Of a stretch of DNA of 64,000 nt, positions 60,720 to 63,697 are shown in pieces. The position numbers and the translations under genes were made by a program. Source of the DNA: a virus; IMG/VR virus record IMGVR_UViG_3300045988_171725, positions 64,001-128,000 of that record, one strand, 5' to 3'. Below the pieces are notes generated by a model, which worked only from the letters and a program-made list of their open reading frames with translations, was not told the origin of the DNA and searched no databases. Position 1 is the first letter of the stretch. Every line of letters starts with the position of its first letter.

Positions 60720-61041
60720 CACAAAAGCAGTGCAGCCGACTTTGACTCGGCTTACGTTGGAGCGTTACCAGCATTGCCTGCCATTATGCCGCATATACCT
60801 TCATACGGCGGGGATCAATTGCTCGGTTTTACAACGTGGGTTTGTCCACTAGTTGATCAGACTAAGCGTTAAGCTACGTTATCAAAGAATATATAGGCAC
60901 CGTAGGATGTACTCTCCAGTCTTACACTCTGCGGTATGTGATTAAACAGTTCTGATGGGTAGGAACAGTGTTGCATACGAAAACCTTTGAATAACATTGT
61001 CGTGGAGTAACCACTCTAACATATAGGAGGCTATAAAAGCA
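60720..61041 (+). ncRNA. candidate IscB omega-RNA (HEARO-type) for iscB copy 1
   Basis: A 322-nt ORF-free, hairpin-rich leader abuts the iscB start, which is the canonical omega-RNA location. It shares blocks with the leader of copy 2: AGCGTTAAGCTACGTT 60865-60880 corresponds to GGCGTAAGATTGCTACGTT 62301-62319, and GGCACCGTAGGATGTA corresponds to TGCACCTTTGGTATAA. The 5' end is unknown. Confidence 0.45.
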
Positions 61042-62301
61042 ATGGTATATGTATTAAATAAACAAGGCGAACCAATAATGCCTTGTAAAGAAGCCAAAGT
61101 AAGAAAGTTGCTTAAACAGAATAAGGCAAAAATAGCAAAACACGAACCGTTTACAATTCAATTATTATTTGAATGCGAAAACCAAATTCAAGAAGTAAAT
61201 CTCGGAATTGATGCAGGAAGTAAACATATTGGTATTTCTGCAACGACAGAAAAACAAGTCTTATATGAAGCTGATGTCGAATTAAGAAGTGATGTTGTTA
61301 ATAAATTATCTTCTCGTCGTGAGATTCGTAGAACTCGTAGAGGTAGGCTGAGATATCGCCCCGAAAGGTTCAATAATCGGGTTAAATCAAAACACAAAGG
61401 TTGGTTAGCGCCAAGCATTGAACAAAAGATAAACACTCATATTCAAGTAATTAAACACCTATACAAAATATTACCAATTAAAAAAATAATTGTCGAAACC
61501 GCACAATTTGATATTCAGAAAATAAATAACCCTGAAATTCAAGGCAAAGAGTATCAACAGGGTGAACAATTAGGTTTCTGGAATGTCAGAGAATACGTAT
61601 TGTTTAGAGACAATCACGAATGCCAATGTTGTCACGGAAGATCGAAAGACAATATTTTAAACGTTCATCATATCGAAAGTAGAAAAACAGGTGGGAATGC
61701 GCCAAATAATTTAATCACTTTATGTGAAACTTGTCATAAAGCCTACCATAAAGGCGAAGTTAAATTAAATCTCAAACGCGGTAAAAATTATCGAGATGCT
61801 GCATTTATGGGAATTATGCGTAAAACATTGTTTAATCGATTGTGCGAATTATACCCATATGTTTCGTAAACATTTGGGTATATAACCAAGAATGTTCGTA
61901 TTGAGAATGGTTTACCGAAAGAACATTATATAGATGCTCGGTGCATAAGCCGTAATCCAAAAGCAAGTCCGTTAGATTATTATATTTATCAGAAATGTGT
62001 TAGAAGACAGAATAGACAAATTCATAAAAATAATTTCTTAAAGGGTGGGCGCAAAAAGAACAACCAACTAGTTGGGAGTATTTTTGGGTTTGAATTATTT
62101 GATACAGTAAAATATCAAAATAAACAATATTTTGTTTTTGCTAAACGTAAATCTGGGTATTTAAACATAAGAGATTTAAACGGAGAAAAAGTAAACAATG
62201 GTTCAATAAATTATAAGAAACTTATGAGAGTTAGACACAATTCTACAAGATTAACAAAAAGGATTGTGATTGGTGCGTACTATCGGAAAAGCTTCGGTTA
62301 G
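61042..62301 (+). pseudogene. iscB: IscB RNA-guided nuclease, copy 1, interrupted by one in-frame TAA (61867-61869)
   Basis: PLMP-type N-terminus (QGEPIMPC), RuvC-I GIDAGSKHIG, Arg-rich bridge helix RREIRRTRRGRLRYR, RuvC-II VETAQFD, and HNH CQCCHG...HHIESRKTGG...NLITLCETCH. After the TAA the same frame continues TFGYITKN...HYIDARCIS (RuvC-III) to TAG 62299-62301. Confidence 0.8.
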
Positions 62302-62449
62302 GCGTAAGATTGCTACGTTTTTGCGAGTTTTTCGGTGAATAAAACTCGTATTTTATGCACCTTTGGTATAACGGTATTATCCTGGCCTCCAAAGCCATGG
62401 GATCTGAGTTCGAATCTTAGTAAGACAGAGTATTTATAAGGAGAGGCTT
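62265..62449 (+). ncRNA. candidate IscB omega-RNA for iscB copy 2, containing a tRNA-Trp-like fold
   Basis: Only 148 nt separate the two iscB genes, so the leader must overlap the copy 1 tail. It shares blocks with the leader of copy 1. Positions 62357-62428 fold as D, anticodon (CCA) and T arms without an acceptor stem. Confidence 0.35.
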
Positions 62450-63697
62450 ATGGTTTACGTAATTTCAAAAGAAAACAAACCTCTTATGCCCTGTTCTAAT
62501 GTAATCGCAAGATTATTATTAAAACAAGGGAAAGCAAAAGTAAAAGGCAAACAACCGTTTACAATTAAATTGCTTTACGAAACAACTAATTATACTCAAG
62601 ATTTAACGCTTGGGGTAGATACTGGCTCTGGAACAATTGGCACAGCCGTTGCGACAGATAGCAGTAAAGTCGTTTATGTCTCTGAAGTGGTGGTTAGAAA
62701 CGATATAACAAACAAAATGACACAACGTGCTAAATATCGCAGGAATAGAAGAAATAGAAAAACTCGTTACAGAAAAGAAAAGTTTCTTAATCGTAAGAAC
62801 TCGATTAAAATTGATAGATTTAGCCCAACCATGGTAAGTAAATTGCATAGTCATGTTAAAGAAATCGAGTATATCAAATCTATTCTTCCTATAAAAACAC
62901 TTGTTTTAGAAACTAGTCAATTCGATCCGCACCTTATGCAAAATCCCGAACTAAAATATAAACCTTGGGGTTATCAAAAAGGTAAAAATTATGGTTTTGC
63001 AAATACTAAAGAAATGGTGTTGAGTCGTGATAATTATACTTGTCAATATTGCAAAGGAAAACACAAAGACAGTAAACTTGAAGTTCATCATATAATTTAT
63101 CGCAGCAATCACGGAAGTGACGATGAAAATAATCTTATAACTTTATGTCAAACTTGTCATAAATTGTTGCATAATGGAGAAATCAAATTAAACCTAAAGG
63201 GTAAATCCAAAGGAACACTAAAATATGCAACTCAGATGAATTCCATAAGAAAACAATTGTTGAGAATTTATCCTGGGGCAATTGAAACATTCGGATTTGT
63301 TACAAAAGAGAATAGATTAAATATCAACGTTGATAAACACCATTATTTAGATGCTTGTGTAATTGCAACTGGCGGTAAAGAATTTCAAATATGTTGTAAC
63401 ATTTATAAGAAAAGATGTGTTTCTAAAGGTGATTTTCAGCAAACAAAAGGGGTTCGTTCTGAACAGAGATTGAACACAAAAAAGATTTGCGGGTTTAGAA
63501 AATTCGATAAAGTAAAATATTTCGGGAAAGAATATTTTATCAAAGGAAGAATGTCGGCTGGGTATGCCGTTTTAATGGATATTGAAGGTAAAAAGATTAA
63601 TTTTTCAGATATGCCAAAGGGACGCAAGTCGGTTAAGTTAAATAATTGTAAACGAATTTCAGCGAGAAAATCACAACTAATTACTCTTTATTCTTAA
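62450..63697 (+). CDS. iscB: IscB RNA-guided nuclease, copy 2 (intact, 415 aa)
   Basis: KENKPLMPC (PLMP), GVDTGSGTIG (RuvC-I), RRNRRNRKTRYR (bridge helix), LETSQFD (RuvC-II), CQYCKG...HHIIYRSNHGSDDENNLITLCQTCH (HNH), HYLDACVIA (RuvC-III), and a C-terminal TAM-interacting-type domain. Confidence 0.9.
   Translation: MVYVISKENKPLMPCSNVIARLLLKQGKAKVKGKQPFTIKLLYETTNYTQDLTLGVDTGSGTIGTAVATDSSKVVYVSEVVVRNDITNKMTQRAKYRRNRRNRKTRYRKEKFLNRKNSIKIDRFSPTMVSKLHSHVKEIEYIKSILPIKTLVLETSQFDPHLMQNPELKYKPWGYQKGKNYGFANTKEMVLSRDNYTCQYCKGKHKDSKLEVHHIIYRSNHGSDDENNLITLCQTCHKLLHNGEIKLNLKGKSKGTLKYATQMNSIRKQLLRIYPGAIETFGFVTKENRLNINVDKHHYLDACVIATGGKEFQICCNIYKKRCVSKGDFQQTKGVRSEQRLNTKKICGFRKFDKVKYFGKEYFIKGRMSAGYAVLMDIEGKKINFSDMPKGRKSVKLNNCKRISARKSQLITLYS

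Follow-up and report, generated by a model that had tools for sequence, protein, structure and literature searches.

IscB nucleases and their guide RNAs (omega-RNAs, represented in Rfam by the HEARO model) have been described from bacterial chromosomes and from phages. In the ISGst5-type elements of Geobacillus stearothermophilus the omega-RNA is encoded upstream of iscB and its guide derives from the flanking DNA, the far end carries a subterminal hairpin and the sequence ATGAA, and most copies are non-autonomous, with TnpA encoded elsewhere. ATGAA is the reverse complement of TTCAT, the target-adjacent motif (TAM) of ISGst5 for both TnpA and IscB (Meers et al., PMC10055086). That most IscB genes lack a nearby TnpA was already known (PMC9755519). 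IscB/HEARO systems are also established in phages: HEARO has been annotated in Silviavirus phages of Staphylococcus (PMC13346280), and IscB-type open reading frames (ORFs) accompany HEARO in these and in other lytic phages (Ralstonia, Clostridium c-st and Mycobacterium phages), mostly under the label 'HNH endonuclease'. In a 2026 review, OMEGA systems are classed as composite homing endonucleases, and homing into co-infecting phages ('non-restorative homing') is regarded as theoretical (PMC13565253). Here we analyse a tandem pair of iscB genes in a 64,000-nt stretch of phage DNA (the window; IMG/VR record IMGVR_UViG_3300045988_171725, record positions 64,001-128,000), together with related loci and contigs retrieved for comparison and labelled in the style of L001 (L007, L016, L094, L096 and others).

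The two window copies, IscB1 and IscB2, are new cases of this known kind. They share with ISGst5 the plan of an omega-RNA upstream of iscB with a flank-derived guide and, at the level of the family, the terminal ATGAA, the subterminal hairpin and a mostly non-autonomous state. They differ from it in residing in a phage genome rather than a chromosome and in both lacking the hairpin; moreover, one copy lacks the TAM and carries a stop codon, while the other lacks an omega-RNA. Since neither unit is complete, the locus is most readily explained as two recently disabled selfish elements in a hotspot. We therefore consider it probable that two independent, non-autonomous IscB/omega-RNA insertions arrived on either side of a tRNA-Trp gene and that both were recently disabled. 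This corrects the description of the locus as a pair of working nucleases or a domesticated system.

A preceding inspection of the letters alone (the sequence-only reading) had reported two head-to-tail IscB-like frames separated by 148 nt. Both frames are confirmed by Pfam RRXRR matches (E 6.5e-66 for IscB1 and 3e-52 for IscB2) and by HNH domain matches, and the gap is indeed 148 nt (62302-62449). The IscB1 reading frame spans 61042-62301 and IscB2 spans 62450-63697, both on the plus strand, as are all window features given coordinates below as parts of the locus. The pair had been placed between an HNH gene and a tRNA cluster; it in fact lies inside the cluster, in the order tRNA-Gln, IscB1, truncated tRNA-Trp, IscB2, tRNA-Pro. 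The left neighbour of the IscB1 element is tRNA-Gln(UUG) at 60710-60783 (ARAGORN; Rfam tRNA, 46.3 bits) and the right neighbour of the IscB2 block is tRNA-Pro(UGG) at 63810-63886 (ARAGORN and Rfam). A promoter and terminator scan of 59900-64000 returned sites no more often than in shuffled sequence.

The best solved relative of IscB2 is OgeuIscB (7utn/7xht, E 5.8e-42), and in this alignment, which spans residues 1-307, the RuvC-I aspartate, RuvC-II glutamate, HNH His-His pair and RuvC-III His/Asp are all present in IscB2 (D57, E154, H213/H214 and H298/D301). The aligned positions in IscB1 are D57, E152, H209/H210 and H295/D298. These residues are assigned as catalytic by reference to OgeuIscB. 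The GstIscB mutants D58A/H209A/H210A give a further basis for the assignment (PMC10055086). The split RuvC domain with an inserted HNH domain, the N-terminal PLMP domain, the arginine-rich bridge helix and the catalytic residues can be recognised in both copies, and the motifs quoted in the sequence-only reading (GIDAGSKHIG against GVDTGSGTIG, VETAQFD against LETSQFD) are real. Its claim of a full architecture in both ORFs holds for IscB2, which is open over 415 aa and retains all catalytic motifs, but not for IscB1, whose frame is interrupted before RuvC-III. The likeness to OgeuIscB extends to the domain order and to omega-RNA1, which matches the whole HEARO model (RF02033). The window proteins are, however, about 80 aa shorter (415-419 against 495 aa), and the TAM of the present elements appears to be ATGAA-like, whereas NWRRNA is stated for OgeuIscB (PMC12660989).

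The two copies had been called clearly different, and they share 41% identity over 395 aa; their nearest relatives elsewhere are 88-89% identical for IscB1 and 93% for IscB2. They belong to different IscB sub-families. Their sites also have separate histories in co-linear relatives. L094 (IMG/VR 3300045988_172778) is a contig of 146.5 kb with 94% identity to window positions 57020-60025, and its tRNA cluster is free of insertions (Ser, Ser, His, Gln, Trp, Pro, Thr). Window positions 62292-62420 correspond to L094 4564-4692 (98%) and to L016 15417-15544 (97%), and L094 4812-5024 corresponds to window 63788-64000 (96%). Both sites are thus empty in L094, and its tRNA-Trp is intact. In L096 (ULLM01016308.1) the IscB1 site is empty, and an intact tRNA-Trp is followed by a 16-nt guide, a full HEARO RNA (89 bits) and an IscB2 homologue that is 93% identical in amino-acid sequence; the downstream sequence is the same as in the window. 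The check for empty sites in relatives proposed from the sequence alone thus returned L094 for both sites and L096 for that of IscB1.

A third polymorphic site lies outside the pair. L016 (3300045988_179398) has an intact tRNA-Trp and is 88-91% identical to the window over 56000-58447, with neighbouring genes in the same order. Immediately upstream of the DnaB-like helicase gene, at the point corresponding to window 56870/56871, it holds an IscB1-type element of about 1.5 kb that comprises a HEARO RNA (119.6 bits) and an ORF. In the window this site (56855-56875; TTAGACGAATTGGAGG followed by ACGAA) is empty. To the right of the IscB2 block, sequence shared by the window and L016 (97%) resumes at about 63739. 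Presence or absence at exact boundaries among co-linear relatives is therefore seen at three sites (window against L094, L096 and L016), and the two families occur independently: neither in L094, IscB2 alone in L096, and an IscB1-type element at another site together with a TnpB in L016. L094 and L016 share an IMG/VR dataset; L096 derives from a different metagenome. As a separate observation, window 56871-56875 reads ACGAA where L016 has ATGAA, a synonymous GAC/GAT difference in the upstream ORF; with one further mismatch in the target, the window allele could resist the element, provided that the TAM requirement is as strict as that reported for GstIscB. Two other contigs, 3300045988_163652 (L014/L015/L007) and 3300030343_000052 (L010, L019), carry both IscB families in separate places.

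The adjacency and common orientation of the two genes might suggest tandem duplication followed by divergence in place. Copies that are 41% identical to each other and 88-89% and 93% identical to copies elsewhere do not fit that history, nor do separate insertion sites with separate empty alleles or the presence of one copy without the other in L096; L094 and L096 already refute it, and we give it virtually no weight. Repeated targeting of one hotspot, which the sequence-only reading had offered as one of two explanations, is supported by the separate sub-families, the separate sites and the independent occurrence of the copies.

A cognate omega-RNA lies directly upstream of IscB1 and is absent upstream of IscB2. 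The omega-RNA1 scaffold (60814-61014) matches Rfam RF02033 over model positions 1-211 with 106 bits (gathering score 83) and is thus full length. Similarity among copies begins at the scaffold start, (A/G)TCAAC..., and the preceding 16 nt vary with the insertion site, as would be expected of a flank-derived IscB guide; a motif heuristic for scaffold starts failed at most loci and was replaced by alignment. The predicted omega-RNA1 guide of about 16 nt (60798-60814; CTTCATACGGCGGGG(A)) is native phage sequence abutting the scaffold: window 60781-60814 is identical over 34/34 nt (100%) to L094 4468-4501 and L096 972-1005, where no element follows. For the search for guide targets in related phages that the sequence-only reading had proposed, these empty alleles are the matches. 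Likewise, the L096 guide (GAACCCTGCGGTAGGT, 16 nt) is native sequence in L094, and the L016 guide (TTAGATGAATTGGAGG) differs from the empty window site by one mismatch. Guides accordingly differ between copies and match the empty alleles. An exact search of metagenomes for the IscB1 left junction gave no match.

The IscB1 frame is broken by an in-frame TAA at 61867-61869 (codon 276), between the HNH and RuvC-III regions, and the ORF is listed as 61042-61869. As encoded, the product has 275 aa and lacks RuvC-III and the C-terminal TAM-reading domain. Among 13 translated IscB1 relatives (N-terminal 275 amino acids 70-89% identical where listed), 12 continue past this codon without a break, and a sense residue (Glu in eight, Met in three, Leu in two) occupies it in all 13; the relatives read YPNVCETYGYITKN (e.g. 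YPNVCETYGY) and the window YPYVS*TFGYITKN, with the asterisk marking the stop. Eleven of the 13 encode proteins of 409-442 aa, L019 has a premature stop further downstream (376 aa) and the contig of L014 ends before its ORF does. Decay of individual IscB copies is common in related phages, L019 being a further truncated case. Beyond the IscB1 stop, the next in-frame ORF with an ATG start begins only at 62224. TAA closes 35 of the 46 long plus-strand frames and is the usual stop in this genome, so it has not been reassigned; with this count and with no suppressor tRNA found in an ARAGORN scan of the window, recoding of the stop codon was rejected.

The 3′ end of IscB1 is also damaged. We lined up the 3′ junctions of about 40 IscB1-family copies. 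In the fuller ones (about 12 of those listed) the conserved ...ERR C-terminus is followed by some 55 nt that fold as a hairpin (z -2.3 and -5.8 in the L016 and L020 examples), and most of the remainder have a short tail without a hairpin. In most junctions, comprising more than 20 independent insertions, the element ends ...TTT|ATGAA and sequences diverge beyond this point; a few show one-base variants such as ATAAA or ATGGA. The IscB2 family follows the same plan, with a hairpin and ATAAA or ATGAA. An earlier guess from three junctions, NGAAG, was replaced by ATGAA once the more than 20 junctions had been aligned. In the window, similarity of IscB1 to its relatives stops at 62263 (...ACAAAAAGGA), with neither ATGAA nor a hairpin (z +0.67); some 21 nt of native spacer present in L094 and L096 (AGAAGGAAGAGAAGGCGGAG) are missing as well. 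These losses are consistent with a deletion across the junction. Window 62294-62340 was considered as the right end of IscB1 and rejected, as the same sequence precedes tRNA-Trp in L016, L094 and L096 without an element. The IscB2 3′ end likewise has no hairpin (z +0.85), nor does its sister in L096, and its TAM position (63702-63706) reads GTGAA where L096 has ATGAA. The subterminal hairpin and TAM thus characterise the family and neither window copy, and neither copy would be expected to serve as a TnpA substrate.

Could IscB1 nevertheless be functional? The TAA might be a sequencing or assembly error, a minority allele or a codon that is read through, leaving a live homing element that cuts L094/L096-type phages at the tRNA-Gln/Trp spacer. 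Such a view draws on the full-length omega-RNA (106 bits), a guide with a 100% match to existing empty alleles (L094 and L096), 144 open and conserved codons past the stop that keep the RuvC-III residues H295/D298, and a nonsynonymous-to-synonymous ratio comparable to that of intact relatives (19 synonymous and 16 nonsynonymous private changes, the stop being one of the latter, within the range of those relatives). Yet the available sequence contains the stop, TAA is the terminator of 35 of 46 long frames and no suppressor tRNA was seen, the 3′ tail and TAM are missing too, the empty alleles read AAGAA and not ATGAA after the target, and the truncation of L019 indicates that decay occurs in this family. 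We regard a working IscB1 unit as unlikely, and IscB1 as an element that kept its guide and omega-RNA and was disabled in its protein and its transposon end.

IscB2 presents the reciprocal lesion, an intact 415-aa ORF with no cognate omega-RNA. No HEARO match was found upstream of it by Rfam even at E<=10, a partial tRNA being reported there instead, and a leader hidden Markov model (HMM) built from IscB2-family relatives has no match in the window. The same HMM matches 66 of 67 IscB2-family relatives with sufficient upstream sequence, the sole miss being a 44%-identical archaeal copy; full HEARO matches (87-108 bits) were obtained in all seven IscB2 relatives tested, and a region of about 260 nt before the ATG is conserved in 12 of 12 aligned viral relatives. 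The window joins this region only at 62421, 29 nt before the ATG. Loss of the omega-RNA by IscB2 thus sets the window alone among 67 comparable family members, besides the distant archaeal miss. The omega-RNA prediction with the HEARO model that the sequence-only reading had proposed thus gives a match for the first copy (106 bits) and none for the second. The exact IscB2 protein was absent from the contig index searched.

Comparison with L096 locates the loss to the base pair. Exactly L096 1198-1482 (285 bp) is missing from the window; this stretch contains the 3′ end of tRNA-Trp, the guide GAACCCTGCGGTAGGT and the HEARO RNA (89 bits), and the deletion endpoint in the window is the junction 62420|62421. 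What remains on the left is a 3′-truncated tRNA-Trp(CCA) at 62357-62420, of which Rfam matches 62364-62420 over model positions 8-63 only (29.6 bits, anticodon CCA). It keeps the 5′ acceptor strand and the D, anticodon and T arms and has lost the 3′ acceptor strand and CCA; intact orthologues lie at L016 15481-15555, L094 4629-4703 and L096 1133-1205. To the right, similarity to the relatives begins at 62421 with the final 29 nt of the IscB2 leader (62421-62449), which contain the ribosome-binding site AAGGAGAGG. From these comparisons the 148-nt spacer consists of native phage DNA (62264-62356, matching L094 and L016), the dead tRNA-Trp and the IscB2 leader stump. The possibility that the tRNA-like piece forms part of an unusual omega-RNA was rejected, since the piece shares 97-98% identity with tRNA-Trp in L016 and L094 and simply breaks off behind the T arm. 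In L096 the IscB2 scaffold begins exactly 16 nt past the CCA end of tRNA-Trp (1209-1224), so tRNA 3′-end processing could set the 5′ end of the guide there, by analogy with engineered tRNA-gRNA arrays; other tRNA-near IscB copies (L002, L004) are not spaced in this way.

An RNA without a protein beside a protein without an RNA raises the idea of complementation in trans, in which the intact, guide-less IscB2 would load the orphaned omega-RNA1 to form a hybrid nuclease from two half-dead elements. Both RNA families fit one Rfam model and share the core motifs CAGACTAAG, CACC and CATTGTCG, and the IscB2 ORF is undecayed with a good ribosome-binding site. The proteins, though, are only 41% identical, most scaffold helices differ between the two families, and a further module of about 60 nt is present at the 3′ end in family 2. 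L007/L015 is the one contig with both families that was checked, and there each family is accompanied by an omega-RNA of its own; Rfam finds the HEARO of the L007 family-2 copy. Two recent independent lesions explain the reciprocal pattern equally well, and we rate complementation as unlikely, somewhat less probable than a functional IscB1.

Domestication by the phage, for example as an inter-phage weapon or a regulator, was the other explanation offered by the sequence-only reading. The genes occupy a hotspot of the type in which homing endonucleases bias the inheritance of phage tRNA regions (T4 SegB, as cited in PMC13565253), and the IscB2 ORF has been under purifying selection on its branch: parsimony with outgroups assigns it 17 synonymous and five conservative nonsynonymous changes, against 14 and seven for L096. 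Against this stand the absence of the arrangement from the closest relatives (L094, L096 and L016), an IscB2 without a guide, an IscB1 with a stop codon and a loss of the omega-RNA that is unique among the 67 comparable relatives; the intact catalytic residues, in turn, do not fit a nuclease-dead regulator of the TldR type. With the nonsense codon and lost 3′ end of IscB1, the missing omega-RNA and guide of IscB2, and an arrangement that is not conserved, the proposal of domestication or inter-phage competition is not supported, and we consider it very unlikely.

No IS200/IS605 TnpA was found in the 64-kb window, either among its 45 ORFs of 120-260 aa or by tblastn, in agreement with the sequence-only reading. 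In relatives, TnpA can adjoin the element: L170 encodes a 134-aa Y1 transposase (Pfam Y1_Tnp, E 2.5e-33) that begins inside the end of iscB, adjacent TnpA genes also occur in L150, L158 and L166, and remnants persist in L011, L104, L130 and L131. TnpA is common in viral contigs; among the best 80 of more than 428 matches, none came from the L016 or L094 contigs. The IscB elements of the relatives, judged by their 3′ ends, are ordinary IS200/IS605-type elements. The sequence-only reading had named two findings that would tell against it, and both largely apply: the relatives carry hairpin/TAM ends and in some cases an adjacent TnpA, and in the window IscB2 has no upstream omega-RNA and IscB1 is truncated.

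An intact element, as seen in the relatives, consists of a flank-derived 16-nt guide, a scaffold of about 200-260 nt, iscB, a subterminal hairpin and ATGAA or ATAAA. By extension from published work on IscB and TnpB, the IscB-omega-RNA complex would cut element-less alleles, in which the target is directly followed by the TAM, and recombinational repair would then copy the element in from a sister copy or a co-infecting phage; new sites would be reached through TnpA supplied in trans. In the window, IscB1 retains its guide and omega-RNA but carries the GAA-to-TAA nonsense codon and is without its hairpin tail and TAM; IscB2 retains its ORF, the 285-bp deletion having taken its guide, whole omega-RNA and the tRNA-Trp 3′ end. 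More tentatively, and with a probability well below even, the IscB elements of this gut-phage lineage may have become independent of TnpA as RNA-guided homing elements; in that case the two window copies would be the remains of such elements, with IscB2 at most re-armed in trans by omega-RNA1. Hairpin-less variants occur at at least seven sites with seven guides, always abutting ATGAA or ATAAA, and TnpA should be unable to excise variants from which the hairpin is absent; filled and empty alleles coexist in related phages.

In the L032-L061 group, a closely related set of IscB1-family elements with a short tail (...GCAAGTAAATTT) and no hairpin is present at seven or more sites, whose left flanks differ. 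All copies lie directly against ATGAA or ATAAA, often at the ATG of the next gene (ATGAAATGT..., ATGAAAACACTGG..., ATGAAGATTAAT...). This pattern suggests spread without a TnpA-competent end, with insertion exactly before start codons.

Several points weigh against the view of two recently disabled elements. Each lesion is a single event in one assembly, the IscB1 stop being one G-to-T change (GAA to TAA) and the IscB2 deletion one junction, and either could reflect a minority variant or an error. The single stop aside, both ORFs are free of signs of decay, which means either that the lesions are recent or that the genes are still selected for. The empty alleles of L094 and L096 carry AAGAA after the IscB1 target instead of the ATGAA of the family. 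Finally, the search for TnpA covered 64 kb, and a TnpA gene may be encoded elsewhere in a genome of probably about 125-150 kb.

The window belongs to a lineage of gut phages with genomes of about 125-150 kb. The phage is tailed, with genes for tape-measure and minor tail proteins, DNA polymerase and a DnaB-like helicase, and nearly all predicted genes lie on one strand. Related contigs measure 124-148 kb, at least one of them (L138) from a human gut metagenome, and the bacterial relatives of IscB2 are mostly in metagenome-assembled genomes of gut-type Firmicutes families. A megablast of 59000-64000 against INPHARED GenBank phage records gave no match. By tblastn, IscB homologues occur in 36 of 50,697 GenBank phage records, usually labelled HNH endonuclease, and six peptide patterns alone recovered 222 confirmed stretches in IMG/VR. 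The cultured-phage proteins are less than 60% (mostly 26-40%) identical to the window copies, and the window lineage differs from those phages in carrying IscB much more often and at polymorphic sites.

The value of the locus lies in its natural history: across four related phage contigs the filled, empty and half-deleted states can be compared to the base pair, and the guide always equals the left flank. They illustrate three routes of element death, namely loss of the guide RNA, nonsense mutation and loss of the transposon end, and offer raw material for testing the homing of OMEGA nucleases between co-infecting phages. The allele series, together with the hairpin-less copies at many sites, is the most useful by-product of the analysis.

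The tRNA region is a hotspot for nuclease-type mobile elements, including an HNH gene, two IscB families and, in L016, a TnpB. In this respect the IscB elements resemble T4 SegB and other Seg/Mob homing endonucleases (reviewed in PMC13565253), selfish nuclease genes that lie between tRNAs and are present or absent among relatives. The expected mode of spread is cleavage of a co-infecting phage at its empty allele and recombinational repair of the cut. IscB differs in being transposon-derived and in reading its target through an RNA guide and a short TAM, not through the protein. A free-standing gene of the homing type lies next to the pair: the 211-aa HNH homing-endonuclease-like ORF at 60084-60719 (PHROG 3377 'HNH endonuclease', E 1.1e-37), which lies outside the IscB elements and has its stop codon inside the next tRNA. 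Comparison of window 60025-60783 with L094 2956-4467 shows that this ORF and the 74-nt tRNA-Gln(UUG), whose T loop is atypical (46 bits), replace 1.5 kb with four tRNAs (Ser, Ser, His and an 85-nt Gln). The replacement looks like a module swap of the type that free-standing homing endonucleases cause. In L016, a 366-aa TnpB (15807-16907; HTH_OrfB_IS605, OrfB_IS605 and Cas12f1-like TNB domains) sits in the tRNA cluster where the window has tRNA-Pro, behind a perfect TTGACA-N17-TATAAT promoter.

Elsewhere in the window, the DNA polymerase gene (36810-40013) lies between two further HNH-type endonuclease ORFs: one of 529 aa (40006-41595; PHROG 559, E 2e-124) that overlaps the end of the polymerase gene, and one of 331 aa with a Pfam HNH_3 match (35825-36820). 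Homing-type genes are thus numerous in this phage. A stretch of about 1 kb immediately before the tRNA cluster (59050-60060) contains no ORF longer than about 60 aa and is 94% conserved in L094 and partly in L096 and L016. Its predicted fold of -299 kcal/mol has no shuffle control at this length, and the region has no Rfam match up to E<=10. One possibility is a large structured RNA like those found beside phage tRNAs. A 393-aa adenylosuccinate-synthetase homologue (45650-46828; Pfam E 1.4e-36) has its best match in PHROG 1211 (E 5.2e-60), which we take to be PurZ-like. Such a gene would hint at a 2-aminoadenine (Z) genome, which could affect nuclease cleavage, that of IscB included; no Z-pathway partner genes were identified among its scanned neighbours. 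Finally, a related viral contig has a RAGATH-18 RNA (L009 6196-6256, 57.8 bits) some 1.3 kb downstream of its IscB, RAGATH-18 being the guide RNA of IS607-type TnpB (PMC13565253).

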